A program made the position numbers and the translations under genes. A DNA stretch of 59,515 bases, filler included. It is 5 parts of 5 records of this genome, joined end to end, with 100 filler letters (N's around TTAATTAATTAA, not from the genome) between each part and the next. Parts side by side here need not be neighbours in the genome. Positions count along the whole stretch, not along the records: positions 15,918 to 31,903 come from SRR31156797_5184; 4 more parts are not named here. One strand, 5' to 3'. The first letter of the stretch is position 1; every line of letters starts with the position of its first letter. The notes under the pieces were generated by a model that was given only the letters and a program-made list of their open reading frames with translations, ran no database searches and was not told where the DNA came from. Positions 15,918 through 31,903 of the stretch are shown piece after piece.

Positions 15918-16368
15918 ATGTATCTTGCATATCTCTAGCTGGATGATACGCAGGAAGATTAAGAGCTTCAAAGTTATGAAAATCATCTTCAACTAAAGGA
16001 CCATCTTCAACACTAAAGTTTAAGTTTTGAAAGTAAGTTGTAATCTTTGCAAGAGTTGCTGCAACAGGGTGATATGCTCCATTGTTTTTCGATGGCTCAA
16101 ATTTTGTTACATCAATCTTCTCAGCTTCTAATTGTTTCTCTAACTCTTTTGCTAATAAAAGTGTTTTTTGGGTTTCCAGTGCTTCAGTTACTTTTGCTTT
16201 TTGTTGATTAAGATGCTGAGCAAATAGTTTTTTCTCATCACTTGGAATATCTTTCATTTTTGCAAACTCTGTAGTTAAGACACCTTTTTTCCCTAAGATA
16301 TCTACTCTTAAAGATTCTAAAGATTCTAAAGAATCACAGGTTTGTATTTTTTCGATCCACTCTTGCAA
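15918..16368 (-). CDS. pheS: Phenylalanine--tRNA ligase alpha subunit, N-terminal part (truncated by contig end)
   Basis: LGKKG, IDVT, HP, NFEALNLPAYHPARDMQDT. Confidence 0.95.
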
Positions 16369-16470
16369 ATAGCTCTCCTTCTATTTATCTTTACATTTTG
16401 GCTTTGGATTATACTTAAAGATTTATTATAGTTTGGTTATACTTTTGAAAAGTTTGAAAAAGGAAGATAT

Positions 16471-16800
16471 ATGTGTATATTTTGCAAGATAGTTGAAGGG
16501 GAGATCCCAAATAAAACAGTTTTAGAAAATGAAAATTTTTTAGCATTTGAGGATATTAATCCACAAGCAAAAATCCATGTGCTTATAATCCCAAAAGTTC
16601 ATGTTCAGTCTTTCAATGAGATGACACCAAATATTATGTCAGAAATGACACCATTTATCCAAGAAGTTGCTTTGAGCTTAGGAGTAAAAAGTGATGGATA
16701 TAGACTTATAACAAATATTGGACAAAATGGTGGACAAGAGGTTGGTCATATCCACTTTCACCTACTAGCAGGTGAGCAACTAGGACCAATAAATAAATAA
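16471..16800 (+). CDS. hinT: Histidine triad (HIT) nucleotide-binding protein
   Basis: CIFCKI, AFEDINPQA, GGQEVGHIHFH. Confidence 0.93.
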   Translation: MCIFCKIVEGEIPNKTVLENENFLAFEDINPQAKIHVLIIPKVHVQSFNEMTPNIMSEMTPFIQEVALSLGVKSDGYRLITNIGQNGGQEVGHIHFHLLAGEQLGPINK

Positions 16801-16808
16801 AATTTTGT

Positions 16809-17477
16809 ATGGATATTTTTCCATTAAGCAGATTTAATTTAACTTTTCCAGATCCAAAATATGCAAGTGATGAGGGCATCCTTGCGTATGGAGGAGACTT
16901 AAGTCCTAATAGAATTATGTATGGTTACTCCCAAGGAATTTTTCCTTGGTATAATGAGGATGACCCCATTTTATGGTGGTCTCCAAATCCAAGATTTGTT
17001 TTAGAACTAGATGAATTCAAAATCTCAAAAAGCTTATCAAAAACAATTAAAAAAAATATTTTTCAAGTAGAGTTTAATACAAATTTTAAAGAGGTGATTT
17101 CCAATTGTGCAAAAGCTAAAAGAGAAGATCAAGATGGCACTTGGATCACAAATGATATGATTGAAGCCTATTGTGAACTTCATCATTTAGGCCATGCACA
17201 TAGTTTTGAAAGCTATTATCAAGGGCAACTTGTAGGTGGTGGATATGGTGTTGCTATTGGTGATATTTTTTGTGGGGAATCAATGTTTAGTTTAAAAAGT
17301 GATGCGAGCAAAGTTGCTCTTGTAAAACTAGTGGAGCATCTAAAAAAGCAAGGGTTTTGGCTGATTGATTCCCAGATTTACACCAAACACCTGATGAGTT
17401 TTGGAGCAAAAGAGATCCCAAGGGATCAGTATTTGAACTATGTACAAAAAGCATTAGTAAACCCTAAATCTTTTTAA
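16809..17477 (+). CDS. aat: Leucyl/phenylalanyl-tRNA--protein transferase
   Basis: GGDLS, GIFPW, WWSPNPR, GTWIT, FCGESMF, DASKVAL. Confidence 0.96.
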   Translation: MDIFPLSRFNLTFPDPKYASDEGILAYGGDLSPNRIMYGYSQGIFPWYNEDDPILWWSPNPRFVLELDEFKISKSLSKTIKKNIFQVEFNTNFKEVISNCAKAKREDQDGTWITNDMIEAYCELHHLGHAHSFESYYQGQLVGGGYGVAIGDIFCGESMFSLKSDASKVALVKLVEHLKKQGFWLIDSQIYTKHLMSFGAKEIPRDQYLNYVQKALVNPKSF

Positions 17478-17480
17478 AGT

Positions 17481-17535
17481 TGATAATTGTTATTAAACTG
17501 TTATCTAAATATGTCATAATAAAAGAATAACAATT
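17481..17535 (+). promoter_or_regulatory. Promoter of the Mrp-Mbx operon with a Fur/PerR-like box and an inverted repeat
   Basis: TGATAAT-T-GTTATTA (17481-17495) resembles the 7-1-7 Fur/PerR box; extended -10 TGTCATAAT (17512-17520); perfect 10-bp IR AATTGTTATT (17485-17494) / AATAACAATT (17526-17535). Confidence 0.45.
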
Positions 17536-17543
17536 GGAGATAT

Positions 17544-17813
17544 ATGAGTAGTTTTATAGTTTTATTAATAGTTATTGCACTTTTCATAGCCTTTATAAGA
17601 TTTTTAAAAGGCCCAGATCTTTTTAATCGTGTAATATCTTTTGATGTGATGAATATCATTGTAATTTCATTATTAGTGGTATTAAGTATTGAGTTTAAAA
17701 GTAGTTTGTATATAGATATTGCTTTTGTTTTTGGTATTTTAGGCTTTTTAGGAGTGATTCTTTTTGCTAGATTTAGCATAGTAGATAAAGAGGAGGATAA
17801 AAAAGATGATTGA
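17544..17813 (+). CDS. mnhF: Mrp antiporter subunit F (MbxB/MbsB equivalent)
   Basis: 89 aa, 3 TM, RFLKGPDLFNRVISFD, YIDIA. Confidence 0.9.
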   Translation: MSSFIVLLIVIALFIAFIRFLKGPDLFNRVISFDVMNIIVISLLVVLSIEFKSSLYIDIAFVFGILGFLGVILFARFSIVDKEEDKKDD

Positions 17814-18120
17814 TATTCTTGGTTTTATCTTTATGGTGTTAGGGGCACTTTTTTTACTTATTAGTGCATTAGGGCTTTTACGAATGCCTGATCTTCTTTC
17901 TCGTATGCATGCAGGGACAAAATCTTCCACTTTAGGAACGATCTTAGTTCTATTAGGAGCAATTTGTTTAGAGCCTACTTTATGGTTTAAACTCTCCCTA
18001 TTGATTTTATTTGTTTTATTGACCAATCCATTATCCGCTACTATTTTAGGAAGAAGTTCATATTTAAAAAATGGATTTTTAAATAAGAGTGGAATTGATG
18101 AGATGGAGAAAAAACAATGA
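17806..18120 (+). CDS. mnhG: Mrp antiporter subunit G (MbxC equivalent)
   Basis: GLLRMPDLLSRMHAGTKSSTLG, LTNP. Confidence 0.92.
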   Translation: MIDILGFIFMVLGALFLLISALGLLRMPDLLSRMHAGTKSSTLGTILVLLGAICLEPTLWFKLSLLILFVLLTNPLSATILGRSSYLKNGFLNKSGIDEMEKKQ

Positions 18121-18362
18121 CTGGTTTATTGATTATTCTTAGTTTTATTGCATTAATTATCACTACTTTTTTTGTGATCTTTGAAAAAAATCTATCGCAG
18201 AGTGTTATACTGTTTTTAGGTTTTGGATTTGGATCAACGATTCTTTATTTTTTATTTTCAGCTCCAGATGTAGCACTTACAGAAGCAGTGATTGGGACAA
18301 GTTTAAGTGCTATTGTTTTTTTAATCACTATTTTACATACAAAACAAAAAGGGAAAATATGA
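18117..18362 (+). CDS. DUF4040 / MbhD-like membrane subunit (MbxD equivalent)
   Basis: APDVALTEAVIG motif; 81 aa, 3 TM. Confidence 0.88.
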   Translation: MTGLLIILSFIALIITTFFVIFEKNLSQSVILFLGFGFGSTILYFLFSAPDVALTEAVIGTSLSAIVFLITILHTKQKGKI

Positions 18363-19063
18363 ATTTAAAAAAGCAGATCCCTTTAAAAACGATTCTAGTT
18401 TCCCTTTTAGTATCATTTATTATTATCGTTTTAATTCAGGTTTTTCTAGGAATTGAACAGACTAATAACTCTTTAGGTCAATCGCTTTTACAAATGAATC
18501 TAGAACAAACGGGGAGTGCCAATGCCGTAACTTCAGTAGTAACCTATTTTCGAGCTTTAGATACTTTAGGAGAAGTAACCATTTTATTTTTATCAATTTT
18601 TGGAATCTCTTTAACTTTAGAAAATCTCTCAAATAAATCAAATATTTTTGCCTATGAAAATAAGATCTTACAAATTGGAACTAAAGTGATTGCACCACTT
18701 ATTATTCTATTTGGAATCTATATTATTTTACATGGACATCTAAGTCCCGGAGGTGGATTTCAAGGGGGTGTAATAATTGCAAGTGGTTTTCTTTTACACT
18801 TTCTTGCATATGGAGATGGATTTAATCTAAACCATAAAATAGTTACTCTTTTTGAGTCTTTAAGTGGAGCTGGATTTATCATAGCTGGAATCTTATCTTT
18901 TCTTTTAGTGAATCAGTTTTTAGGAAACTTTCTTCCTTTAGGGGAAGTTAGAAACCTTTTTAGCGCAGGTATTATCCCTATCATCTATATTTTTGTAGGG
19001 CTAAAAGTCGCTTCAGAGATCACAGTGATGATCGAATATTTTTTAAAGGGAAAAGATGTTTGA
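18359..19063 (+). CDS. mnhB: Mrp antiporter subunit B (fused MbhE/F type; MbsE equivalent)
   Basis: NAVTSVVTYFRALDTLGE, HGHLSPGGGFQGG. Confidence 0.92.
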   Translation: MNLKKQIPLKTILVSLLVSFIIIVLIQVFLGIEQTNNSLGQSLLQMNLEQTGSANAVTSVVTYFRALDTLGEVTILFLSIFGISLTLENLSNKSNIFAYENKILQIGTKVIAPLIILFGIYIILHGHLSPGGGFQGGVIIASGFLLHFLAYGDGFNLNHKIVTLFESLSGAGFIIAGILSFLLVNQFLGNFLPLGEVRNLFSAGIIPIIYIFVGLKVASEITVMIEYFLKGKDV

Positions 19064-19442
19064 GTTTTTCAATGACCCTAAAATAATCTCTTCAAGTGTT
19101 CTTATAGGATCTTTTATTATCTTTGGAATAGCACTTTTAGGGGTTATGATCCAAAAAAATCTCATCAAGATATTTATCGCTTTATCGATTGCAGAAGCGA
19201 GTCTCTTTTTATATTTTATAGGAAGCCATTTTAGTCATGGAAAGGTTGCTCCGATTGTGACTGACTCAGTAAAAGAGTTTAGTCCACAAATGGCTGATCC
19301 AGTTCCACAAGCGATGATATTAACCACTATCGTAATAGCTATTGCAGTTTTAGCATTAGCATTATCATACATTACTAAGTATTATTCTTTTACAAAGAAT
19401 CTTGATATTTCTAAAATGGATGAGTTAGGAGAGGACAAATGA
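19056..19442 (+). CDS. mnhC: Mrp antiporter subunit C (MbxG equivalent)
   Basis: KNLIKIFI, DPVPQAMILTTIVI. Confidence 0.92.
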   Translation: MFEFFNDPKIISSSVLIGSFIIFGIALLGVMIQKNLIKIFIALSIAEASLFLYFIGSHFSHGKVAPIVTDSVKEFSPQMADPVPQAMILTTIVIAIAVLALALSYITKYYSFTKNLDISKMDELGEDK

Positions 19443-20830
19443 GTTTATCTTTTTTTATTGCTCTTCCTTTATTATTGTCATTTTTAACACCGCTGTATAA
19501 AAATATCCTTGGATTTATCTCCATTACTATGCATTTAGCTTTATTTGGTTTTTTATTTTATTTCTATTCATTATTACCTATAAAAGAGTTTATTAGTTTT
19601 GATTCTCCGTTAGCTATTACTTTTGTGTTGGATCAAACCAATTTTATCCTCTTATCATTATTTATAAGTGTTTCATTTTTTATTACACTATTTTCTTTAA
19701 ACACTGGCATCAATAGAGAAAAATTTATCGCCACTTCTCTTCTTTTAGTAGGAGTAATGGGACTACTTTTAAGTATAGATATTTTTAATATCTATATCTT
19801 TTTTGAGATAGCAAGTATAAGCAGCTATATTTTAAGTTCACTCAATAAAGATAAACAAGCCTATGGAGCTGCTATTCGATATATGATTATTGGAGCAGTT
19901 GCTTCAATATTTTTATTACTTGGAATTATCCTTATCTATTTAAATCTTGGGACGTTAAATCTTTATACGATAGGGGAGATTTTTTATACACTCTCAACTA
20001 GCTTGCAGTTTATTATTTTTATCTCTTTTCTTATTGGTTTTGGGATTAAAAGTGAGATATTCCCTTTAAATTTTTGGGTAGCAGATATCTATCAAGGAAC
20101 TACCTCTTTAAATGCTTCATTTTTTAGTGGAATCGTTTCATCAACTTATATTTTTGTACTTTTTTCAGTATTACGTTTTTTTACTATTGAAGAGAATATC
20201 CTATGGGCTTTAATGCTTATTGGAGGGCTTAGTTTTTTAACAGCTGAACTCTCAGCATTAAAAGCAAAACATCTAAAAAGAATTTTTGCTTTTTCTACCA
20301 TGGGACAATTAGGAGTGATGTTTTTAGCTTTTGCTTCAAATAATCAAACAGTGATAAGTGGAGCACTCTATCTTATGGTGATCCACTCAGTTGCAAAATT
20401 AAGTCTTTTTTTATCTTTAGATATTTTGGAAAAACATTTTGAAAAGCTTTCTATTGATATTTTTCAAAAACTTGAATCACTCTTTTTAATAATAGTTTTT
20501 ACTATAGGCTTTTTATCCATCTTAGGGATTCCACCGTTTGGAGGATTTATTGCAAAACTTACTATTTTACAAGGATTGGGAGAGATACAAGCATATGGTT
20601 TTATTGGCTTGATTCTTATTATTTCTATCATTGAAGCAGTATACTTTTTTAGACTCCTTAGTTTTAATGTAAAAAAAGAAAACCCAATAAAAATTCAAAT
20701 ACCATTTATCCAAAAAATGGTATTGATTATTCTCTCTCTAAGTCTTTTATATCTAGGAATTTTCCCAGATTGTCTAATGGACTTAGTTTATGAAGCAGCA
20801 AATAGTTTTGTAAGGAATACATATGTTTAG
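19439..20830 (+). CDS. mnhD: Proton-translocating antiporter-like subunit (MrpD/MbxH)
   Basis: DIFNIYIFFEI, GIKSEIFPLNFW, KRIFAFST, GIPPFGGFIAK. Confidence 0.9.
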   Translation: MSLSFFIALPLLLSFLTPLYKNILGFISITMHLALFGFLFYFYSLLPIKEFISFDSPLAITFVLDQTNFILLSLFISVSFFITLFSLNTGINREKFIATSLLLVGVMGLLLSIDIFNIYIFFEIASISSYILSSLNKDKQAYGAAIRYMIIGAVASIFLLLGIILIYLNLGTLNLYTIGEIFYTLSTSLQFIIFISFLIGFGIKSEIFPLNFWVADIYQGTTSLNASFFSGIVSSTYIFVLFSVLRFFTIEENILWALMLIGGLSFLTAELSALKAKHLKRIFAFSTMGQLGVMFLAFASNNQTVISGALYLMVIHSVAKLSLFLSLDILEKHFEKLSIDIFQKLESLFLIIVFTIGFLSILGIPPFGGFIAKLTILQGLGEIQAYGFIGLILIISIIEAVYFFRLLSFNVKKENPIKIQIPFIQKMVLIILSLSLLYLGIFPDCLMDLVYEAANSFVRNTYV

Positions 20831-22451
20831 TTTTGAGGTAACAGCTTTAGGAAATCTATTTTTTATTTTACAGCTTTGTGTATTTCTATCCCTTATATTT
20901 TTAATCAATATGAAAAAAGAGATTCTTTTATATACCCTTTTATTTGTCTCCTTTACAATGATCTTTTATGCGGATAACTTTTTAACACTCTTTATCGGAT
21001 GGGAGATTATGGGGTGGAGTAGTTTTTTTCTTATGGGAAAAAATACCCAAGTACAAACCTTACAAAAATATATTGTTTTTAATCTAGCTGGAGCCTTTGC
21101 TTTTTTAGGAGCTATTATCCTTATTTACAGTTTTTGTGGAAGTTTTTCTTATCATCTATTAGAGCTTGCTAAAATCCCGTTAGAGTTTATATTTTTGATC
21201 TCCACTTTATTTATGATAACTATTTTTATAAAATCAGGTGTGGTACCATTTCATTTTTGGATCGTAGATAGTTATAAGGAATCAAATCATACCTTTAGTG
21301 CAATGTTAAGTGCTTTGATCTCTAAAGCTGGGATATTTTTATTTTTACTTGTTTTTTATAAACTCTCTTTTTTAACTCTAAATGATGGAAAATATTTCTT
21401 TACTATTGTAGCATGGCTTGGAGCTATCACTTCAATTATTACAACCTTTAAAGCGATCTATCAAGATGAGATAAAAAAACTTTTAGCCTACTCCTCTATT
21501 GCTCAAATAAGTTATATTATCACTATTTTAGCGATTGTAAGTGATAGTGCTATGGGAGCTGCATTGTATCATACGATTATCCATCTTTTTGTAAAACTTC
21601 TTTTATTTATTAATGTAGCTGCACTTATTGTTATTAGTACCAAAGAGAAGTTTGAAGATTTTGGAGCACTTTTATATAAATATCCAGTGGCATTTATCTC
21701 TTTAGTTATTGGAATCATAGTTCTTGCTGGAATGCCACCACTTGGAGGTTTTAGTAGTAAGTTTTTAATCTATACAACATTACTAGAACAAAAAGAGGGA
21801 TTTTTATTAGCTGCTGTGATGTTTAGCGGTGCCGCTTCATTTCTTTACTGTTATAAATTAGTCTATGGGATCTATTTAGGATCACCTACAAAAAGCTCAC
21901 GTGAAATCACAAAACCGATTCCAAAACGTTTTTATATTCCACAGATACTAGCTGTGATCGTAGTAGTAGTCTTAGGAGTTTTCCCAGCAAGTGTAATTCC
22001 ATATTTTAATACTATTTTAAATGAGATGGGGTATGCTAGCTTAATATATTCAGATATTTTTACACTGGAAAGTCCTTTTGGTTCATTTAATGGTGGAGTG
22101 GTGATTGGAGTATTTGTTGCTTTATTTATCCTAATTTTACTTTTACTTTTAAGATTAAAAAATAAAGTAAGAGCTGTAGATGATCAGTATGATATCAGCT
22201 ACTGTGGAGAGGTGCCGAGTGAGCAAAACAATCTTCACTTTGGGTATGGGATGGCAAAAGAGATACGACGGATCAGTTTTATAAAAGTGATCCTTTTTAA
22301 TAGTTCAAAAAAGTTTTGGGATAATCTGGTGAAGTTTTTCTATGATGCCTCTGATATCTTAAGGTCACTTTATAATATAAGCGTACAAAATAGTGTGTTA
22401 GTGATGGTTGCTGTTTTTGCTATTGCATTAGCCTATGGAGTAACAAAATGA
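20823..22451 (+). CDS. Second proton-translocating antiporter-like subunit (MbxH-prime; NuoL/M family)
   Basis: LFIGWEIMGWSS, KSGVVPFHFW, KKLLAYSSIAQ, GMPPLGGFSSK, C-terminal YCGE extension. Confidence 0.88.
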   Translation: MFSFEVTALGNLFFILQLCVFLSLIFLINMKKEILLYTLLFVSFTMIFYADNFLTLFIGWEIMGWSSFFLMGKNTQVQTLQKYIVFNLAGAFAFLGAIILIYSFCGSFSYHLLELAKIPLEFIFLISTLFMITIFIKSGVVPFHFWIVDSYKESNHTFSAMLSALISKAGIFLFLLVFYKLSFLTLNDGKYFFTIVAWLGAITSIITTFKAIYQDEIKKLLAYSSIAQISYIITILAIVSDSAMGAALYHTIIHLFVKLLLFINVAALIVISTKEKFEDFGALLYKYPVAFISLVIGIIVLAGMPPLGGFSSKFLIYTTLLEQKEGFLLAAVMFSGAASFLYCYKLVYGIYLGSPTKSSREITKPIPKRFYIPQILAVIVVVVLGVFPASVIPYFNTILNEMGYASLIYSDIFTLESPFGSFNGGVVIGVFVALFILILLLLLRLKNKVRAVDDQYDISYCGEVPSEQNNLHFGYGMAKEIRRISFIKVILFNSSKKFWDNLVKFFYDASDILRSLYNISVQNSVLVMVAVFAIALAYGVTK

Positions 22452-23323
22452 TAGATATATTTTTAATGATTCTTATAGCATATGGATTTGGGTTTTTATA
22501 TTCAGGGCTTTATAGAAATATCAGTGCAAGGGTTCATGGAAGATATGGTCCCTCTTTAGCACAATCTTTTTTTGATAGTATCAAGCTTTTTTCCAAAGAA
22601 AACTCTACCAATTTTGGATGGATGTTTTATCTAGGTCCCGTGATTATGGCAAGTGGAGCGATTCTTACAGTTCTTTTTATTCCATTTTTAAATCATGGGG
22701 AGTTCTTAACAGGATTTAGCTCTTACGGAAATCTTATTATCATATTATACTTTATGGTTCTAGGGCCTTTAGGAAATGCTTTAGGAATAGGAAGTAATGG
22801 AAACCCTTTTGGGGTAATGGGAGTTTCACGAGGGCTCACTCGACTCATAGGCTTAGAGCTTCCATTTTATATAGCAATGATTGGTCTAATGATGGCAAAT
22901 GGAACCGCTGATATCTCAGTCATTATGGCAAATCAGCAAGAGGGCTATAACGCCTTTACTTATCCACTTTTATTTATTGCTGCTTTTATTTCATTTTTAG
23001 GTTTTATGGGAAAATCACCTTTTGATGTGGTAGGAGCTCCTCAAGAGGTATATAGTGGACCAGCAAGTGAATTTAGCGGAAAGTTTTTTGCATTAGCGAT
23101 GTCTCAAAGTGCAATGTTCTCTTTTGCTAAACTCTTATTGATGGTCAATCTATTTTTAGGTGGAGCAGATAATATTTTTGATCTAGTTCTTAAGACATTT
23201 ATATTATTTATCGCAGCAGTGTTTACAGGAAATGTATTTGGAAGATTAACAACGATTCAAAGTGTGGAGTTTTTAATAAAAGTTCCTACTGTTATAGCTC
23301 TTATCGGGTTAGCATTTATTTAA
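22448..23323 (+). CDS. nuoH: Complex I subunit 1 family membrane anchor (NuoH-like; MbxM)
   Basis: ARVHGRYGP, DSIKLFSKE, PFDVVGAPQEVYSGPASEFSG. Confidence 0.9.
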   Translation: MIDIFLMILIAYGFGFLYSGLYRNISARVHGRYGPSLAQSFFDSIKLFSKENSTNFGWMFYLGPVIMASGAILTVLFIPFLNHGEFLTGFSSYGNLIIILYFMVLGPLGNALGIGSNGNPFGVMGVSRGLTRLIGLELPFYIAMIGLMMANGTADISVIMANQQEGYNAFTYPLLFIAAFISFLGFMGKSPFDVVGAPQEVYSGPASEFSGKFFALAMSQSAMFSFAKLLLMVNLFLGGADNIFDLVLKTFILFIAAVFTGNVFGRLTTIQSVEFLIKVPTVIALIGLAFI

Positions 23324-23339
23324 AGAAAAAAGAGGAAAT

Positions 23340-24605
23340 ATGAAAAAAATAGTTTTATTATCAACAGTTACAGCCATGACATTATTAGCAACAAACGGAG
23401 ATCAAATGATGGGATATAGTCCTGTATCACGAGCTTTAGGTGGAACTGGAGTTGCTATCTTTAATGGATCATCAAATGCATTAACAAACCCTGCTTTACT
23501 TTCTAAAACAGGTGTAACCAATGAATTTTCATTTGGTGGAACTCTTTTTAGTCCAGATGTTCAGGTATCTACAACGGCAGGAAGTGTTGAAGATCCCACT
23601 GTTGGAGTAGATAAAACAAGTGATCAGGGTATAAGTATGATACCTGTGATTGCACTTTCTCATAGAGTTTCAGATACGACTGTATTTGGTCTTGGGATGT
23701 ATGGAACTGCAGGTATGGGAACAGATTGGAGAGGAAGTGATGTCAATGCTGCTCTTGGTCAAGTTGATCTTTATAATATGAGAAGCTCTTTGATGCTAAT
23801 GCAGTTTGCTCCATCTTTAGCTTATGGAACAGACTCTTTTGGAGTTGGATTTACTGGGATCATTCAATATGGTGCTTTAAGTATCGATTATGATACAGCA
23901 GATTATCTAGGAAATCCAACACATATAGGAAGTGGAGAATCAAATGATTTTGGATTTGGTTTTCAACTTGGAGGATATTATAATCTTACACCATCTTTAA
24001 CTCTAGGAGCAGTGTATAAATCAGCTATTGATATGGAATATAAAGATCAAATTAGTAAAGCTGCTTTGGCGTTTGGATATGGATCAACATCGACTGCATT
24101 AGCTGGCAAATCAGATCATCTTGAACAACCAGCTGAGATTGGGATTGGGATTGCATATGATATGAACAATATTATATATACAGCTGATATCAAAGAGATC
24201 CAATGGGGTGAAGCAAAAGGGTATAAAGATTTTGCTTGGGAAAATCAAACAGTAGTAGCTTTAGGGATTAAATATGTTCAAAAAAGCTATTGGTTAGGAG
24301 TTGGATATAACTATGGTGAAAATCCTATTCCAAATAATACAGATTCTACAAGCGTAGCAGGTGGGATGAATACTAATGGAGACACCATGAATCTTTTTAA
24401 TTATGCAATGTTTCCAGCTACTATCACTTCTGCATACTCTTTAGGTGGTGGATTTGATATGGGAGAAAATATGAGTATGGATCTTGCTTATACCTATGCT
24501 CCAAAAGTAAAAGATACAGTAAGTGGTACAACAGTTGGGGTTGGTGATATTACAACAAGCCATTCACAAAACGCTTTAACATTTGCATTTAACTTTAAAT
24601 TTTAG
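23340..24605 (+). CDS. OmpP1/FadL/TodX family outer-membrane channel
   Basis: Sec signal peptide, mature N-terminus TNG...SRALGGTGVA...NPA hatch motif, amphipathic beta-strands, C-terminal beta-signal FAFNFKF; 421 aa. Confidence 0.9.
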   Translation: MKKIVLLSTVTAMTLLATNGDQMMGYSPVSRALGGTGVAIFNGSSNALTNPALLSKTGVTNEFSFGGTLFSPDVQVSTTAGSVEDPTVGVDKTSDQGISMIPVIALSHRVSDTTVFGLGMYGTAGMGTDWRGSDVNAALGQVDLYNMRSSLMLMQFAPSLAYGTDSFGVGFTGIIQYGALSIDYDTADYLGNPTHIGSGESNDFGFGFQLGGYYNLTPSLTLGAVYKSAIDMEYKDQISKAALAFGYGSTSTALAGKSDHLEQPAEIGIGIAYDMNNIIYTADIKEIQWGEAKGYKDFAWENQTVVALGIKYVQKSYWLGVGYNYGENPIPNNTDSTSVAGGMNTNGDTMNLFNYAMFPATITSAYSLGGGFDMGENMSMDLAYTYAPKVKDTVSGTTVGVGDITTSHSQNALTFAFNFKF

Positions 24606-24624
24606 TAGTGATAAAGGGTCAAAG

Positions 24625-25236
24625 ATGCAAGAAGGTTTTACAAGTTACCAACAAAGTTTAGAAAATGAAGAAGAGTCTTTAAAATCTACCCAAACAGTTA
24701 TCCAAAAAGCGATAGATTGGTTCAGGTCTCGAAGTATGTTCGTTTTAGCCTATGGGACAGGATGTGGGGCAATTGAGATGCCACCTACATTTACAAGTAG
24801 ATATGATATAGAAAGATTAGGAGTAGTAGGAGTTGCTACTCCTAGACAAGCAGATATTTTAATCGTATCAGGGTATTGCTCTCCAAAAACTCTTAAAAGA
24901 GTAATTCGAAGTTATGAACAGATGAATGATCCAAAATATGTGATAGGACTTGGAAGCTGTACTATTAATGGTGGGATGTATTGGGATAGTTATAATACCA
25001 TTAAAAAGCTAGATGATTATATCCCCGTAGATATGTATGTCAATGGATGTATGCCAAGACCTGAAGCTTTGATAGAGGGATTTGTACAGTTACAAAACAA
25101 TATTCGGCATAGTACAAAAAAAGCCGGATATAAAAAATATCAAGATGAGTATACATTTTATCAAGCCAATCAAGAAAAACTTTTTGGAAAAAATAAAGCT
25201 CCAAAGTATCTAGAAAATTTTGCAGGGAATCTATAA
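24625..25236 (+). CDS. nuoB: NuoB-like Fe-S subunit (MbxJ/MbsJ type)
   Basis: GTGCGAIEMPP..SRYDIERLG, TPRQAD, GSCTINGGMYWDSY, GCMPRPE. Start set to ATG 24625 (RBS AAAGGG) to avoid overlap with the OMP gene. Confidence 0.92.
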   Translation: MQEGFTSYQQSLENEEESLKSTQTVIQKAIDWFRSRSMFVLAYGTGCGAIEMPPTFTSRYDIERLGVVGVATPRQADILIVSGYCSPKTLKRVIRSYEQMNDPKYVIGLGSCTINGGMYWDSYNTIKKLDDYIPVDMYVNGCMPRPEALIEGFVQLQNNIRHSTKKAGYKKYQDEYTFYQANQEKLFGKNKAPKYLENFAGNL

Positions 25237-25793
25237 TGTCAATAGAAAAGTTACAAGAGCATTTTGTAGTATGTCAAAAAGAGAGTACTTTATATAAAGT
25301 CTCTTTTTCAAAAAATGAGTTGGTAGAAAAGATAAAACTTCTTGATACTTTAGGGTTTATCACATTATCCATGATTAGCTGTACTGATTGGATAGAAGAG
25401 GAAAAGTTTTGTCTCAATTATATCTTAACGACAGAACAAAGAGATATAAACCTTTTATGCGAAGTAGAATTGGAGCGAGAAAATAGTTCTATACAAAGTA
25501 TAAGTGAGTTGTACCAGCAAGCTGAAATCTTTGAGCGAGATCTTTGGGAGATGTTTGGTATTGATTTTATAGGAAATAAAAATCTTGTAGAATTATCCTT
25601 AGAGGATTGGGAACATATCCCACCACTTCGACGTGAGTTTGATACTTTAGCTTTTGTGAATGAACATTTTGATTTTCGTAATGGAAGAGATGACAATAAA
25701 GATGTAAAAGTGGAACTAAAAAGAAGAAAAGAGGAAGCCAAAAAACTCAAAGAGCAAGAAGAATTGGCAAAAAAGGAAAATGATGGAGAATAA
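25236..25793 (+). CDS. nuoC: NuoC-like subunit (MbxK)
   Basis: CTDWIEE, FERDLWEMFGIDFIG, LEDWEHIPPLRREFDT. Confidence 0.9.
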   Translation: MSIEKLQEHFVVCQKESTLYKVSFSKNELVEKIKLLDTLGFITLSMISCTDWIEEEKFCLNYILTTEQRDINLLCEVELERENSSIQSISELYQQAEIFERDLWEMFGIDFIGNKNLVELSLEDWEHIPPLRREFDTLAFVNEHFDFRNGRDDNKDVKVELKRRKEEAKKLKEQEELAKKENDGE

Positions 25794-26892
25794 TAAACTT
25801 ATTAAGATTTTCCATGGACCACAGCACCCTGGAGTAACAGGAAATATGAGTGTAGAGCTTGATCTTTTAGGGGAAACTATCCAAAAAGCTACTACTCATG
25901 TAGGGTATCTTCATAGAGGTTTTGAAAAACTTGTGGAGAGACGAACAGTTATCCAAGCTTTTACTATCGTTTGTCGTATCTGTGTTCCTGAACCAGACCC
26001 AAATGAAGAGAACTTTGCAAGAGCCATTGAGAGTTTGGCTGGAATTGAGATCAGCGAAAAAGCAAAATATATAAGAGTGATGGTCTTAGAAATGGCACGT
26101 CTTGGAGCACAAATGCTTTGGATGGCTGGACAAAGTGGTAGTATAGGGATGGGAACTGTTGGACAGTGGAGTGTCTATGATAGAGATCTGATCCTTGATC
26201 TTTTTGAAGAGCTTACAGGAGGGAGGGTATATCATATGTATATCTATCCTGGAGGGGTAAGAAGAGAATTACCTGAAGGGTTTTTAGAAAAACTAGAAAC
26301 GTATTTAGATTATCTAGAAAAAAAGTTATCTAAATATGATAAGATCTTTTTTGATAATGTAACTTTTAAAAAAAGAGCTATGGGTGTAGGGATCGTAAAA
26401 GCTGGGCAGGCTTTAAAAAATGGATATGTAGGAGCAGTTCTAAGAGGCTCAGGTATTCAAAGAGATGTACGAAAAGACAATCCATATCTAGTCTATGATA
26501 AATTAGAGTTTGATATCCCAACTGCAAACGAAGGTGATGTATATGCAAGAGCAATGGTACGACGAGAAGAGATGAATCAATCTATCAAAATCTTACGTCA
26601 AGTGATCGCTCAGATGCCAAAAGAGGGTGAGATTATGCAAAAGCTTCCAAAGCATAGAAAATTCACTCTTCCAAAAGATGATGTCTATGTGGCAACAGAA
26701 TCAGCTCGAGGTGAGTTTGGATACTATATAGCAGGTGATGGATCTGAATATATTCGAAGGATGCAGGTAAAAGGACCTTCCATGATTCATGGGTTTCCTT
26801 TACTTGAAAAACTGTTAGTAAATGAAGAGTTGTCCAATGTGGCAATGATCATGAACTCTTTAGGGATATGCCCTCCGGAGATAGAGCGATGA
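25780..26892 (+). CDS. nuoD: NuoD-like large subunit without a NiFe site (MbxL/MbsL type)
   Basis: GPQHPG, GYLHRGFEKL, RICVPEPD, ESARGE, C-terminus CPPEIER. Confidence 0.92.
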   Translation: MMENNKLIKIFHGPQHPGVTGNMSVELDLLGETIQKATTHVGYLHRGFEKLVERRTVIQAFTIVCRICVPEPDPNEENFARAIESLAGIEISEKAKYIRVMVLEMARLGAQMLWMAGQSGSIGMGTVGQWSVYDRDLILDLFEELTGGRVYHMYIYPGGVRRELPEGFLEKLETYLDYLEKKLSKYDKIFFDNVTFKKRAMGVGIVKAGQALKNGYVGAVLRGSGIQRDVRKDNPYLVYDKLEFDIPTANEGDVYARAMVRREEMNQSIKILRQVIAQMPKEGEIMQKLPKHRKFTLPKDDVYVATESARGEFGYYIAGDGSEYIRRMQVKGPSMIHGFPLLEKLLVNEELSNVAMIMNSLGICPPEIER

Positions 26893-27275
26893 AAATAGAT
26901 ATAAAAGGGACAATTAACCCATTTAGTGCTTTAACAAAAGTTTTAGAGCATCCAAATACGGTTTGTTACCCAGAAGAGAAAAAAGCTGAGGTGGCTGGAT
27001 ATAGAGGGTTTCATACAAACCTTTTAGAACTCTGTATTGGGTGTGCAAACTGCCAAGATGTATGTATGAATGAAGCGATTGATATGGTTTTAATCGATGA
27101 GGATAAAAATCCAAAAAATAAAAGTGGCTGTATCCCAAGAATTGATTATGGAAGATGTTGCTGGTGTAGTTTATGTACCGATGTATGTCCTCCTGATTCA
27201 TTAAGATTAGAGAGTGATTGTATCTGGGCAGGTGATGATAGTAATGACTTTTTATATATGCCAAAGGATAAGTAA
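26889..27275 (+). CDS. nuoI: NuoI-like 2x[4Fe-4S] subunit (MbxN)
   Basis: YRGFH, CIGCANCQDVC, DYGRCCWCSLCTDVCP. ATG 26889 overlaps the upstream stop (ATGA). Confidence 0.9.
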   Translation: MKIDIKGTINPFSALTKVLEHPNTVCYPEEKKAEVAGYRGFHTNLLELCIGCANCQDVCMNEAIDMVLIDEDKNPKNKSGCIPRIDYGRCCWCSLCTDVCPPDSLRLESDCIWAGDDSNDFLYMPKDK

Positions 27276-27724
27276 TGATAGGGAAGTTTATTTTACTTTT
27301 TTTAGTATGGATTGGGCTTACAAACTCTTTGGCTGTAGATGAGCTATTAGTAGGGGCGATAGTTTCTTTGATAGTAGTCTATTTTTTTACAGATCGATCA
27401 AAGTTGAATCTTTTAAGTGTGCTTAAAAAATATATCCTTTTTATCCCTTTATTTTTAAAAGAGCTGATCATCTCTAATATAGAAGTAGCAAAAATAGTGT
27501 TAAGTCCAAAGGTAGATATAAAAAGTGGGATTGTGGAGATTCAAACAAAGTTAGAAAATGATTCAGATAAGTTACTTTTGGCAAACTCTATTACTTTGAC
27601 ACCTGGGACTTTAACTTTGGAGCTTAATGAAGATCATTTATATATCCATGTGTTAGATATGGAAAAAAATCCAAAAGCTCAGTTGGAAAAAAATATAGAA
27701 AAGTTTGAAAAAGTTCTTGTATAA
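27275..27724 (+). CDS. mnhE: Mrp antiporter subunit E (MbxA equivalent)
   Basis: SNIEVAKIVL, LANSITLTPGTLT, LYIHVL. Confidence 0.94.
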   Translation: MIGKFILLFLVWIGLTNSLAVDELLVGAIVSLIVVYFFTDRSKLNLLSVLKKYILFIPLFLKELIISNIEVAKIVLSPKVDIKSGIVEIQTKLENDSDKLLLANSITLTPGTLTLELNEDHLYIHVLDMEKNPKAQLEKNIEKFEKVLV

Positions 27725-27735
27725 AAGAACTTCTC

Positions 27736-28731
27736 TTACATCTTTACACGACTTTGAATATCAATTGCTTCAATAGTCGTAAAATCTTTTTGTAAATATT
27801 GCTCAATCGCAACTCGACCTATCATCGCTGCATTATCACTACAGTATTTAAGTTCACTTAAAAGAAGTTCACAGTTAAATTCAGCACATAGTTTTTCAAT
27901 CTGTGAACGCAAAGCTTTATTGGCACTAGCTCCCCCAACTATAGCAAACTGTTTTGGTCTTGCAGTCTTAAAATACTTTTTTACTTTCATCATAATATGT
28001 TTTATAGCTGTTTCTTGAAAAGAAGCGCAGATATTATTGATAGTAGTTTCAGTTAAATTATCTGCATTTTCCTCTTTTTCAATCACAAGCCGCACAGCAT
28101 TTTTTAATCCACTATAACTAAACTCTATTTTCGGACTTTGTCTTAAAGGAATAGGAAGTTCATAACTATTTGGATCACCTTGCAAAGCATGTTTTTCTAC
28201 AATAGGACCACCGGGATATCCAAGTCCAAGCATCTTTGATACTTTATCAAAGCTCTCTCCAAAACTATCATCCATAGTTTCACCGATTATTTTTATATCG
28301 GTTAAATTTTTAGCCTCTAAAATTTGTGTATGTCCACCTGAGACTAAAAGAATAGTCGAAGGAAGTTTGGACTCTCCCTCAATAAAAAGAGAAAAGATAT
28401 GACCTTTTAAATGATTTACGGCAATTAATGGAAGCCCTAAAGAGATACTTAAAGCTTTTGCCATAGTTACTCCTTCCATAAGTGTTACACTTAGTCCTGG
28501 TGCATTTGTCACAGCTATCGCTTTTAAGTCTTTAAAATAAGGTTGACACTCTTTTAATATTTTTGGCAAAGCTTCCGCATGAAGTCTTGCAGCAAGTTCA
28601 GGTACAACTCCTCCATAGATACTATGATCAAGTTCTTGAGATATTTTTTTGTGATAGATCAGTTTTTTAGTTTTAATTTCTGTAATGGCGATAGAGCTAT
28701 CATCACAGCTGGATTCGATACTTAGGATCAT
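27736..28731 (-). CDS. tsaD: tRNA N6-adenosine threonylcarbamoyltransferase
   Basis: [47 protein letters not shown]. Confidence 0.97.
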
Positions 28732-29084
28732 TGATTCTCTTTTAAAATATTATTTACTACATCCAAAAAAGGATTTATCTTATATCTTAAAGTATCTTCA
28801 ATAATTCCTAAACTAACACCATCATAATCATGTGCTATAAAGTTTCTTACAGCAAATATCCCTTTTATATCTGAGGGTTGAAAATGATCTAAAATTTTTG
28901 ATTCCATTTTTTGTAATTTTGCAACTTGTTCAGCTATTGCAACTAAAAGCATTAAAATAGCAGGTTGTCCTTCTAAATCCTTTAATGCTTTTACAATTCC
29001 ATCATGTCTTTGTATAATTGAGTTAATATCATCTAACTTTTTTTTAATAGATTGTAGTTTAATGATCTCTTCATCATTATACAT
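28728..29084 (-). CDS. HEPN (DUF86) ribonuclease toxin, HepT-like
   Basis: RNFIAHDY = RX4HXY motif; follows the MNT gene. Confidence 0.9.
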
Positions 29085-29397
29085 AAATAGCCTTTTTTAA
29101 AATATAGGTATTATTATGTTGTAATAAGCCTTGTTTATCAACAATATCTATATCTTTTTGAAATTGATTTTTTAATAGTTCTCGATAATCTTCCAATCTT
29201 GAAAATGCATCCCATCCTCTATATTTTTTTAAAAATTCAGGTGTAGTTTCAATAAGTATATCAATATCACTATCCTCTTTAGCTTCATCTCTAGCGTATG
29301 AACCAAAAAGTCCTAAAAGCTTTAAATTGTCTTGTTCAAAGGTAGGTTGTAATTGTTTTAATTGAGTTAGTATATCTTCTTTTTTTAGAATTGACAT
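29077..29397 (-). CDS. Minimal nucleotidyltransferase antitoxin, MntA-like
   Basis: LFGSYARDEAKEDSDIDI = GSX10DXD. Confidence 0.92.
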   Translation of the reverse strand: MSILKKEDILTQLKQLQPTFEQDNLKLLGLFGSYARDEAKEDSDIDILIETTPEFLKKYRGWDAFSRLEDYRELLKNQFQKDIDIVDKQGLLQHNNTYILKKAIYV

Positions 29398-29441
29398 TTG
29401 TAACCTCTATTTTAGCTATTTTATATATTCAATATTCATTA

Positions 29442-29450
29442 ATTATAACA
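29442..29450 (-). promoter_or_regulatory. Extended -10 promoter for MNT-HEPN-tsaD
   Basis: TGTTATAAT on the minus strand about 45 nt upstream of the MNT start. Confidence 0.5.
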
Positions 29451-29463
29451 AAATAATATCAAA

Positions 29464-30006
29464 TTATTCCGTATCTTTTGTAAGCCATTCTAAAGCACAA
29501 GAGAGTTCACCATACCCACTATCAGTATTAATATGTCCAGCGTCATCTAGTATCTTTAGACCGATATTAAGCTCACTTTGAAGCTCTATTATCTCTTCAA
29601 CACTCATATAAGGATCATTAGTACTTCCAGCCATGATCACTTCTTTTGCTTTGAGATCTTTTGGCACGGGATAAGGAAAAAATGTTTGAAGTTCTTTTAT
29701 ATCACAGTTTTTTCGTACAGGAGCTACTAGCATCAGTTTTTCAATAGGTTCTATATCAAATTTTTCAACTAAATGAAACCACACAATATTAGCTAAGGAG
29801 TGACATACCACAAAATCAGGTTTAAAGTGATCAAACTCATTTTTTACAAACTCCATCCACTCATTAAATTCAGGAAACTCTTTATCTTGTATTTCTGGAA
29901 AGGAGACAATATAGTTTTTCTTGATAAGTTCACACGCCAACCATGCTTGCCAATGGGGATAGTCACTTCCACCCCAACCATGAAGTATTAAAACTCTTTT
30001 CCCCAT
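29464..30006 (-). CDS. RBBP9/YdeN family alpha/beta hydrolase
   Basis: ILHGWGGS..HWQ.WL, CHSLA nucleophile elbow, STNDPY, AGHIN..SGYG. Start set to ATG 30006. Confidence 0.9.
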   Translation of the reverse strand: MGKRVLILHGWGGSDYPHWQAWLACELIKKNYIVSFPEIQDKEFPEFNEWMEFVKNEFDHFKPDFVVCHSLANIVWFHLVEKFDIEPIEKLMLVAPVRKNCDIKELQTFFPYPVPKDLKAKEVIMAGSTNDPYMSVEEIIELQSELNIGLKILDDAGHINTDSGYGELSCALEWLTKDTE

Positions 30007-30437
30007 TATTTTAGCTTCCTTACACATCGTACAAATTTTTTATAAGTCCTATTTTGATAATAGATCGCACCACTTTTAAAAAATACAAAATACCCATATA
30101 ATCCAAAATTTCTATTCCATGTTCTATCACTTGTCCAGTAATTTTCAGGTAAGATATATTTAAAAGCACGATTGATCATGAGTTCATCTTTTCTTGTTTT
30201 ATCTATAATAGTTAGATACTCTTCTTTCGTTGGAAGATGCCAATCAGTAAAACCTGCAAATGAGAGTTCTTTACAATGTTTAACCGCTTCTTCTTGAGTT
30301 AATCGGATCTTGACTGTATCATAAGTATCTTGCCACATCAGTTTATGCTGATCGTCTATAACATAATCACCACTTTTAGTAAGCTTTGCACTAAAGGCAA
30401 GATTTAAAAATATTAAAAATAAAATGATGATTTTCAT
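30006..30437 (-). CDS. Secreted DUF1566 (Lcl C-terminal) domain protein
   Basis: Signal peptide, KLMWQ, C..L..AGFTDWHLPT..E, YWTS, VRCVR. Confidence 0.88.
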   Translation of the reverse strand: MKIIILFLIFLNLAFSAKLTKSGDYVIDDQHKLMWQDTYDTVKIRLTQEEAVKHCKELSFAGFTDWHLPTKEEYLTIIDKTRKDELMINRAFKYILPENYWTSDRTWNRNFGLYGYFVFFKSGAIYYQNRTYKKFVRCVRKLK

Positions 30438-30712
30438 AGGTTATCCTTAGTCACTATTGTATACTTTTTTCGCTCAATTGGATCTTTTATAGAATCATCA
30501 AAAAGCTCTAGTGAAATGGTATACCCTTGTCTAAAAATAAGACCTTTTAACTCTTTTGGTGGCTCTTTTTCTTCATCAGTTGCATGCTCTTTCCACTCTT
30601 GGAATTTTTTTTCATAAATATCGACTATTTTATCTTCATGGTATTTTCGTTCAAGTAACAATCCAATAGTGATAATTAAAAGCATAATAAAAGGGATCAT
30701 CATACCATCCAT
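30434..30712 (-). CDS. Hypothetical protein with N-terminal TM
   Basis: 92-aa ORF tightly packed between dxr and the DUF1566 gene. Confidence 0.75.
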   Translation of the reverse strand: MDGMMIPFIMLLIITIGLLLERKYHEDKIVDIYEKKFQEWKEHATDEEKEPPKELKGLIFRQGYTISLELFDDSIKDPIERKKYTIVTKDNL

Positions 30713-31786
30713 CTAAAACTCCTGTGCAAAAAATCTAGCTGCTTCATTGGCTGCATAAAGATCATCAACTGAATTGACTGAAATAGAGTGAAAATGGTTT
30801 AAAGCTTGTAGCGATATTTTTGAGATATCCATAAAGTTTATCTCTTTTTTTAAAAATCGTTCAACCGCTACTTCATTGGCTCCATTTAAAATGACACCAA
30901 GGTTTTCATTATGTAAAAGTTCTTTTTTTACTTCCCAAATTGGGTATCTCTCAGTTGCGATCTCTCTAAATTCTAAACTACCAAGAGAAAGTAGATCAAC
31001 AGGTTTTAATATTTGCTCTTCAACACGATCTAAAATTGCATAAGCAATTGGAAGCTGCATATTTGCATGGGCTAAATGAGCAGTAGTACTTCCATCAGTA
31101 AAGTTTATAAGTGCATGGATAATAGATTGTGTCTCAATAATAGCATCACATTGAGTAGTATCAAAAAGCCATTTTGCTTCGATAAGCTCAAAAAGTTTAT
31201 TGGTCATAGTAGCGCTATCTATTGTGATCTTATTTCCCATAGACCAATTTGGATGATTAAGCGCTTGTTCAATAGTGACATTTTGAAGTTCACTTAGAGG
31301 GTAATTTCTAAAGCTACCCCCACTTGCTGTGATCATAAGGTTTTCTATCGGTTTGTTTTTATCTTGTAGATACCAAAGTCCAAAATGTTCACTATCAATT
31401 GGAACGATTTTAGAAGTGTCTAAAAACTGACCTCCAACCACTAAAGATTCTTTATTAGCTAAAGCGACTTTTTTCCCACACTCTATAGCTTTCATAGTTG
31501 GTTCTAATCCAAAAAAACCAACAAGAGCATTAACCACAAGATCTGAATCTGAAGTTTCAATCTCTTCTAAAATAGAGGCTAATCCAAATTTTACATTTGA
31601 ATGGTTGACACGAGGAATATTCTCTTTTAATGCAACGATTACAACTCTAGGTGTAAACTCTTTTAATTGTTCATTTAAAAGTTCAATATTATTTCCAGCA
31701 ACTAGAACATCAATATGGATATTAAATTTTTTAGCAATAGCGAGGGTATTGACCCCAATTGATCCAGTACTCCCTAAAACAATCAA
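30713..31786 (-). CDS. dxr: 1-deoxy-D-xylulose 5-phosphate reductoisomerase
   Basis: LGSTGSIG, LANKESL, PIDSEH, TASGG, HPNWSMGNKITIDSA. Confidence 0.97.
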   Translation of the reverse strand: MIVLGSTGSIGVNTLAIAKKFNIHIDVLVAGNNIELLNEQLKEFTPRVVIVALKENIPRVNHSNVKFGLASILEEIETSDSDLVVNALVGFFGLEPTMKAIECGKKVALANKESLVVGGQFLDTSKIVPIDSEHFGLWYLQDKNKPIENLMITASGGSFRNYPLSELQNVTIEQALNHPNWSMGNKITIDSATMTNKLFELIEAKWLFDTTQCDAIIETQSIIHALINFTDGSTTAHLAHANMQLPIAYAILDRVEEQILKPVDLLSLGSLEFREIATERYPIWEVKKELLHNENLGVILNGANEVAVERFLKKEINFMDISKISLQALNHFHSISVNSVDDLYAANEAARFFAQEF

Positions 31787-31903
31787 CTAAAAAGCCTTAA
31801 AAGGATAAGTAGTGCAACTCCTGCAAAAAGATATCCATCTACACGATCTAGCATTCCCCCATGACCAGGGAGGATATCTCCACTATCTTTTACATCAGCT
31901 TCT
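31783..31903 (-). CDS. cdsA: Phosphatidate cytidylyltransferase, C-terminal fragment
   Basis: Manual translation EADVKDSGDILPGHGGMLDRVDGYLF...FS*; usual position upstream of dxr. Confidence 0.92.

Follow-up and report, generated by a model that had tools for sequence, protein, structure and literature searches.

The stretch of DNA considered here (the window, 59,515 nucleotides) consists of five contigs joined by spacers of N, and one of these, at 15918-31903, carries an operon at 17544-27724 that, to judge from its sequence, encodes a complete membrane complex of the MBS family, related to the MBS of Pyrococcus furiosus (PDB entry 6U8Y). Statements about the genome as a whole are taken from the nearest relative, G001, which is 95% complete, is 96-98% identical to the window across this contig, and stands in for the window's own genome. 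The host belongs to the Campylobacterota, as an earlier, sequence-only reading had proposed, and likely to the Arcobacteraceae, its TsaD being 72% identical to that of an Arcobacteraceae-labelled genome and 59-66% identical to those of four others. Pfam families were assigned to 23 proteins of the contig, and eight subunits (L, J, H', H, M, E, N and C) were searched against the PDB.

The MBS operon

Fourteen tightly packed genes on the plus strand fill 17544-27724, between aat upstream and a convergent tsaD downstream, and 13 of the 14 encode the MBS subunits A, B, C, D, E, G, H, H', M, J, K, L and N. All 13 proteins match, in order, the 13 genes of L190, a Thermococcales-type locus used as a proxy together with rows L172 and L122; the last is a near copy of the P. 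furiosus protein, matching 6u8y_L at 7e-243. The order of Pfam families along the operon is MrpF, MrpG, MbhD, MnhB, 4L/MrpC, two antiporter-like proteins (both Proton_antipo_M), NuoH-like, OmpP1/FadL/TodX, then NuoB-, NuoC-, NuoD- and NuoI-like proteins and finally MnhE, so that the two antiporter-like subunits and the Mrp set seen earlier are indeed present.

The membrane genes begin with mbsB (MrpF-like, 17544..17813; Pfam MrpF_PhaF, 36% identical to its L190 counterpart) and mbsC (MrpG-like, 17806..18120; Pfam PhaG_MnhG), in which the TNP proline is kept and whose best PDB match, 6u8y_C at 1.1e-14, leads the Mrp G chains by a small margin. In mbsD (18117..18362; Pfam MbhD) the glutamate of DVALTE aligns with the proxy, as does a glutamate of mbsG (MrpC/NuoK-like, 19056..19442; Pfam Oxidored_q2); between them lies mbsE (18359..19063), a fusion of MbhE and MrpB as in MBS, with 6u8y_E at 1.3e-38 and the next match at 3.8e-13. 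The antiporter-like pumps are encoded by mbsH (19439..20830; best match 6u8y_H, 4.2e-47) and mbsH' (20823..22451; best match 6u8y_X, 3.4e-56), and the NuoH-like anchor by mbsM (22448..23323), for which 6u8y_M (3e-40) is the sole PDB match at E<=1e-22. A gene for an outer-membrane channel of the FadL/TodX family (23340..24605, 421 aa; Pfam Toluene_X) comes next and is discussed below.

The catalytic genes are mbsJ (NuoB-like, 24625..25236; best match 6u8y_J at 4.3e-60, the next at 8.4e-37), mbsK (NuoC-like, 25236..25793; Pfam Complex1_30kDa), mbsL (NuoD-like, 25780..26892, 370 aa) and mbsN (26889..27275), a short NuoI-like gene with two [4Fe-4S] motifs, whose start is more likely to be at 26889 and whose sole PDB match at E<=1e-10 is 6u8y_N (5.5e-17). 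The MrpE-like gene mbsA (27275..27724; Pfam MNHE) stands last, as it does throughout the clade described below.

Relationship to complex I and the hydrogenases

The P. furiosus MBS was the top match for all eight subunits searched against the PDB. For L, the E-values are 9.6e-93 for 6u8y_L, 4.3e-66 for Nqo4 and 3.4e-37 for MbhL, with bit scores of 314 for MbsL against 132 for MbhL, and by BLASTP the window L is 40-41% identical to the Thermococcales proxies. The RICVPEPD motif and the C-terminal CPPEIER that the sequence-only reading picked out are both present (P. furiosus MbsL has RICVPEPD...CPPDIDR), and each NiFe CxxC motif retains its first cysteine only.

L trees were built in 56-row and 103-row versions, with partial or near-duplicate rows omitted and with unnamed representatives standing in for named MbhL, Fpo and Thermotoga sequences; the Mbx loci in them were drawn from metagenomes by motif pattern (120 matches, 80 of them with DNA). 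The 56-row tree places the window L within a 32-row MbsL clade that includes L122, L172 and L190 (support 100/100) and stands apart from the NuoD, Ech/Hyf and Ehr-type rows. In approximately unbiased (AU) tests, a grouping of the Campylobacterota MbsL with NuoD was rejected at p 6e-6 and one with Ehr or group 4 enzymes at p 1.7e-63. The view that the catalytic module is MBS-like, and neither complex I nor a NiFe hydrogenase, thus holds on PDB matches, motifs and tree.

That the locus might instead encode a divergent quinone-reducing complex I, an Ehr complex or a group 4 hydrogenase is very improbable, even though L (404 bits against a cut-off of 360) passes the NCBIfam NuoD model PRK06075, J passes the NuoB cut-offs, and the GPQH motif is common to L and NuoD. 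Complex I was rejected as a candidate on several grounds: L has T20 and V69 in place of the quinone-site residues H38 and Y87 of Nqo4, J has a single cysteine where NuoB has a tandem CC, NuoA is missing, there are two pumps instead of three, and the AU test goes against it. The group 4 NiFe hydrogenases (Mbh, Ech, Hyc/Hyf) fail on the incomplete CxxC motifs of L, of which two of the four NiFe cysteines remain, on the lack of a small-subunit CxxC, and again on the AU test. L231, a six-gene hyf-like reference operon whose large subunit is a C/D fusion of about 500 aa and which we take to be Ehr, lies far from the window L in the tree. No family for NuoA, NuoE/F/G or hydrogenase maturation was found by Pfam among the 23 contig proteins, as had been noticed earlier; absent maturation genes on a 16-kb contig are weak evidence, because G001 has NiFe hydrogenases elsewhere, and it is by motif and tree that a hydrogenase identity is excluded.

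A separate complex I is likewise there: G001 has a nuo operon of the Campylobacterota type, a second nuoA-B-CD-E-F run and a group 4 enzyme, at 32-34% identity. In the first of the two G001 complex I operons (L088 and L089), nuoD and nuoH are separated by large extra redox genes. The score above the NuoD cut-off bears out the expectation that automated pipelines would label the locus nuo; databases do name the orthologues of the clade NuoD, and metabolic reconstructions miss MBS as a result.

A genome scan for the clade to which the window operon belongs gave 76 loci; these are alike in gene order, mbsA coming last, and in their short N.

Active-site and membrane residues

In P. furiosus MBS the ligands of the proximal cluster are J C28, C93 and C123 only, the C25A and L C85A/C385A mutants remain active, and equivalents of Nqo4 H38 and Y87 are absent (Yu et al. 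2020, PMC7684303). The window J protein has C47, C112 and C142 at the three ligand positions and Gly44 at the position of C25, and its site is predicted to be a site-differentiated catalytic [4Fe-4S] cluster with three cysteine ligands. Glycine stands at the C25 position in all 62 readable J genes of the clade (64 were found) and cysteine in all six Thermococcales proxies, a natural change that agrees with the published C25A result. L keeps the two vestigial NiFe cysteines expected of an MbsL, C68 and C364 (P. furiosus C85 and C385), as do all 67 full-length rows of the clade; RICVPEPDP is found in 72 of 73 readable loci and CPPE[IM]ER in 72 of 76, the other four being cut or frameshifted.

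From the 13 subunits, the motifs and the phylogeny, which are established, we infer substrate, donor, direction and coupling: the complex is likely a ferredoxin:polysulfide oxidoreductase coupled to ion pumping, running forward during anoxia. When oxygen and nitrate are exhausted, ferredoxin reduced by pyruvate:ferredoxin oxidoreductase (PFOR) acting on stored carbon, or by hydrogenases, would dock on N; two [4Fe-4S] clusters would relay the electrons to the J cluster, whose open iron would break polysulfide at an internal S-S bond within the J-L-M pocket. H and H' would pump protons, and these may be exchanged for Na+ by the Mrp-type module. In parallel, NAD(P)H would be disposed of by a soluble NAD(P)H-dependent flavoprotein resembling CoA-disulfide/polysulfide reductases, and, as the weakest step of the scheme, the FadL-type channel may aid the passage of hydrophobic S8 or organic polysulfides across the outer membrane.

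The charged residues of the membrane axis are kept in part. H' retains equivalents of all five that are listed (E128, K217, K248, H336 and K399), H three of five, and M three of five (D196, E203 and E211). H' is some 70 residues shorter than its P. furiosus counterpart at the N-terminus. Most Campylobacterota rows have an H' of 531-551 aa, compared with about 590 aa for Chromatiaceae and 602-632 aa for most of the remaining rows. H has Ser235 at the position of P. furiosus K250 and Lys204 at that of E219; lysine at the latter is found in all 45 Campylobacterota and Chromatiaceae-type rows, against glutamate in all 36 others. The lack of K250 and H330 equivalents in H, and of E104 and E193 in M, weighs against the coupling we propose, which may differ here or be reduced.

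The same residues bear on the idea that the substrate might be an organic di- or trisulfide, such as a thiol persulfide, or that the complex might mainly be a vent for surplus reductant and sulfane sulfur that conserves little energy in this strain. The clade has extra cysteines, L C65 in 67/67 rows and J C85 in all 38 Campylobacterota rows (and in none of 22 Chromatiaceae-type rows), the P. furiosus enzyme was assayed with an organic trisulfide (PMC7684303), and the K250 lysine of H is lost in the window and G001 only, being kept in 27/27 Campylobacterota and 18/18 Chromatiaceae-type rows. This lysine is, however, variable in other bacterial Mbx as well (present in 8 of 31), all five of the listed charged residues of H' and three of the five in H are retained, and the nine membrane genes are all intact and syntenic across the clade; we therefore think this idea quite improbable. 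A CxxC read from L C65-C68 was considered as a NiFe motif and rejected, as it is offset by three positions.

Electron input

Ferredoxin or flavodoxin had been suggested as the donor. By Pfam, mbsN has no fused NAD(P)H flavoprotein domain, and its best NCBIfam match is to the first 131 of the 611 positions of PRK13984. A flavodoxin was not found in G001 with two family models (five genomes gave 0 and 1 matches), and ferredoxin is thus the likelier donor. N is 128-140 aa long across the clade and at least 587 aa in 42 of the 66 N genes of the metagenome sample, one of which, checked by Pfam, has a fused GltD-like flavoprotein. A long N is found also in the outgroups closest to it (L164, L188 and L115), and because the window clade nests among fused lineages, it likely lost the NAD(P)H domain. 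No conserved NAD(P)H input module was found adjoining the operon, NfnAB-like genes flanking one of the 76 loci. On the other side, no ferredoxin partner was identified.

Likeness to known systems

The window complex shares with the P. furiosus MBS its 13 subunit types, two antiporter-like pumps, the MbsE fusion, two vestigial L cysteines, the absence of the quinone His/Tyr pair, the three-Cys proximal cluster and a stand-alone N. It differs in its diderm bacterial host, in having mbsA last rather than first and fadL inside the operon, in the glycine at C25, the lysine at H E219 and, in this strain, the serine at K250, in its shorter H' and N, in an M without E104 and E193, and in the extra cysteines of L and J.

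Mbx-like complexes of the same family and core gene order are described for Thermotoga maritima, strain 3DAC and proteobacteria (PMC9431562, PMC10356935, PMC4758237). In those of Thermotoga and the proteobacteria, a GltD-like NAD(P)H flavoprotein takes the place of NuoI or is fused to it, unlike the short N of the window (PMC4758237). Both nsr and mbxA of Thermotoga are induced by elemental sulfur, S0 (PMC9431562), as is the Mbx/MBS of strain 3DAC (PMC10356935), and MBS is present in 3DAC and the CCTB clade (PMC10356935, PMC9772386). The putative Mrp-Mbx of the Riftia pachyptila symbiont is of Mbx type and belongs to a sulfur-oxidising autotroph, as here, but to a gammaproteobacterium (PMC11636981). 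PsrABC of Wolinella and Sulfurovum would serve the same net role, sulfur as electron sink, and is unrelated in sequence to MBS: it is a menaquinol-fed molybdoenzyme that frees terminal sulfur as H2S, and Psr is the proposed sulfur reductase of Sulfurovum (PMC10045233).

The FadL-type channel gene

The channel gene begins 16 bp after mbsM and ends 19 bp before mbsJ. Its product is predicted to be a beta-barrel with an N-terminal hatch domain, as in FadL and TodX; the model has a pLDDT of 93.5, and the top Foldseek matches are FadL, TodX and TbuX (E 6.6e-24, TM about 0.75), which have the same fold and Pfam family at 15-19% identity. Unlike these three, the window subfamily has its named members in sulfur oxidisers, including Sulfuricurvum, Sulfurimonas and Thiomicrospira, and it turned up in 54 of 301 genomes from the order and in 7 of 151 from the family. 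Among 35 loci of the subfamily examined, YeeE-type sulfur transporter genes lie within 1.5 kb in five (three from one genus), soxB in one, and a cysK-like gene with ABC permeases in one. At L289, L299, L300, L307 and L309 the gene stands by YeeE/YedE, with a MarR regulator in four, possibly a sulfur-import module.

The M-fadL-J arrangement is also present in G001, another study has a contig that spans it with 97% identity, and in two more studies the fadL junctions are bridged by contigs of about 11-12% divergence; run X1 was left out of this count, as it may be the source. Co-transcription with the MBS genes is suggested by spacing, a scan for promoters and terminators having performed at chance (53 found against 52.5 expected, and 4 against 4.7). 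The GC content at synonymous third positions (GC3s) of fadL is 0.12, against 0.19-0.20 for the operon and flanks, possibly reflecting strong codon bias (and perhaps high expression) or a separate origin. Two observations tell against a functional tie to MBS: fadL lies between M and J in only one of 59 related loci showing both genes, and unrelated passenger genes occur within the operon in other genomes. We regard the channel as a tentative candidate for hydrophobic-sulfur uptake, a role that is possible though somewhat unlikely. The proteins that move S0 across the outer membrane are stated to be unconfirmed (PMC10045233), and a search of the literature gave no report linking FadL with sulfur; the fadL gene inside the operon is a specific candidate for this passage.

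Distribution and horizontal transfer

The 76 loci come from Sulfurovum, Sulfurimonas, Sulfuricurvum, Arcobacteraceae and other Campylobacterota, from Chromatiaceae and Ectothiorhodospiraceae, and from two Spirochaetales and one Fibrobacter-labelled bin. Most of the carriers that have a name are bacteria that oxidise or store sulfur, and those in culture include Sulfurovum sp. CS9, Sulfurospirillum sp. 1612, Allochromatium palmeri and warmingii, Thiocystis violacea and Imhoffiella purpurea. The clade occurs in 7 of 28 congeners, in none of 33 other relatives and in 4 of 400 other Campylobacterota genomes sampled. It occurs also in 14 of 151 Chromatiaceae, a further 51 of which have more distant Mbx matches, all of long-N type in the three examined. 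In two Chromatiaceae Mbx operons (L335 and L336) H and H' are fused into a protein of about 1050 aa, N is long, and tyrosine replaces the C-terminal vestigial cysteine of L. At six Chromatium/Allochromatium loci (L055, L056, L060, L076, L078 and L087) N and mbsA were not detected after L, and some are frameshifted, which may reflect decay or relocation.

Patchiness of this kind, together with the frameshifted or incomplete Chromatium copies, could be read as the mark of a fading passenger that serves only as an Mrp-type Na+/H+ antiporter. It can hardly be so, as the redox subunits are the best conserved (within the clade L has 60-90% identity, whereas H and H', G001 apart, have 30-57%) and the cluster ligands are invariant.

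The operon lies between aat (16809..17477, plus strand) and tsaD (27736..28731, minus strand), a setting from which horizontal acquisition had been suggested, and this suggestion gained ground. Among 10 other congeners with a best-matching aat, aat and tsaD are directly convergent in two and one gene apart in three; G011, one of the two, has its MBS elsewhere, and a contig of run X3 likewise links aat with tsaD. As the two genes are adjacent in relatives, the MBS operon is an insertion, and in the L tree the monophyly of the three Arcobacteraceae-type rows is rejected (p 1e-52). Composition gave no signal of transfer (GC3s 0.20 against 0.19; synonymous codon use p 0.07 against seven flanking genes), so the case is one of synteny and tree, and the even composition would fit either a donor whose composition was similar or a transfer long ago.

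Three further observations concern the flanks. The gene hit adjoins aat at 16800-16809, with a gene of about 245 aa between the two in 9 of 10 congeners examined; aat of G001 is split by a frameshift in the assembly; and 28728-29397 holds a HepT-like nuclease and nucleotidyltransferase pair of the MNT-HEPN toxin-antitoxin type (GC 25%), where G001 differs in sequence.

Metabolic context and direction

G001 also has a soluble NAD-linked hydrogenase beside its group 4 enzyme, SoxB, SoxC, ATP citrate lyase, NapA, glycogen phosphorylase and homodimeric PFOR. A flavoprotein similar to CoA-disulfide reductases, which we take to be NSR-like, follows a 1188-aa PFOR gene in the same run of genes in G001 and flanks the operon in 6 of the 76 loci. 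It falls below all NCBIfam cut-offs, with NoxA-3 as best PDB match, and occurs in 7 of 7 congeners with MBS against 8 of 21 others (Fisher p 0.007, the kin not being independent). Glycogen or glycolysis genes flank the operon in five of the 76 loci, and an NfnAB/SudAB-like pair in one; in two Sulfurovum bins (L023 and L024) the operon lies inside a glycogen/glycolysis cluster, with GH57 enzymes, PGI, PFK and pyruvate kinase.

No PsrA-like gene was found in G001 with a family model or a congener's protein. The claim that the route is independent of Psr thus stands in that the two are mechanistically separate and none was found in this genome, and fails as a general replacement, since a PsrA/PhsA-like gene coexists with MBS in 4 of 7 congeners (8 of 21 others); an enrichment of Psr with MBS was looked for among the 28 congeners and not found. 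This coexistence weighs against forward sulfur reduction as the role of the complex, as does the lack of enrichment for the genes that would feed it: glycogen phosphorylase occurs in 4 of 7 MBS congeners against 12 of 21 others, and homodimeric PFOR in 4 of 7 against 11 of 21. The autotrophy of the hosts is a further point on that side, for they depend on reduced ferredoxin (4 of 5 have ATP citrate lyase), and the opposite direction fits that need equally well.

Running in reverse, the complex would use the ion-motive force to oxidise sulfide or short polysulfide to longer chains and supply the rTCA (reductive tricarboxylic acid) cycle with reduced ferredoxin, a shorter uphill step than the reduction of ferredoxin from menaquinol. 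Carriers are mostly sulfur oxidisers, and ATP citrate lyase, SoxB and SoxC of G001 suit such a role. On redox potentials that we assume, the step would cost 27-42 kJ/mol, or about 1.6-2.9 charges at 150-180 mV, which two pumps could supply. A figure of 41 kJ/mol is given in PMC7684303, and in the Riftia symbiont a putative Mrp-Mbx, its direction given as unknown, is expressed together with rTCA genes (PMC11636981). No MBS is reported to run backwards in the literature examined, however; rTCA autotrophs evidently manage without the complex, as 4 of 400 other Campylobacterota carry it; other routes to ferredoxin are present in G001, in the form of a group 4 hydrogenase and two complex I operons; and the metabolic genes that flank the operon, where present, are catabolic. 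We thus consider reverse operation improbable, and keep to forward reduction of polysulfide.

Significance

A bacterial MBS is less novel than had been assumed, as bacterial Mbx complexes are already in print for Thermotoga, proteobacteria and the Riftia symbiont. Our literature search, which did not extend to supplements or subscription reviews, so that an earlier listing is possible, gave no report of MBS in Campylobacterota or of the short-N form. The complex is not mentioned in the text searched by term of PMC12998232, PMC10470523, PMC12403661, PMC11406935 and PMC4288042, and the available parts of PMC8165549 and PMC12724263 hold nothing further on MBS distribution.

MBS has been purified from a hyperthermophilic archaeon, and the bacterial copies in the literature examined rest on expression or modelling; a ferredoxin-type MBS in cultured bacteria makes S-S cleavage at a single cluster testable beyond the thermophiles. 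For strains of this group that lack Psr, the complex is a candidate route of sulfur reduction. Purple sulfur bacteria reduce sulfur in the dark, and there too the complex is a candidate for the activity. It is conceivable, but unlikely, that the ferredoxin-only MBS of sulfur-oxidising Campylobacterota and purple sulfur bacteria is reversible, with FadL as a dedicated S0 route in the window lineage. Were it so, the same complex would allow respiration of stored or external sulfur under anoxia and, reversed on an ion gradient, would supply ferredoxin from sulfide for CO2 fixation.

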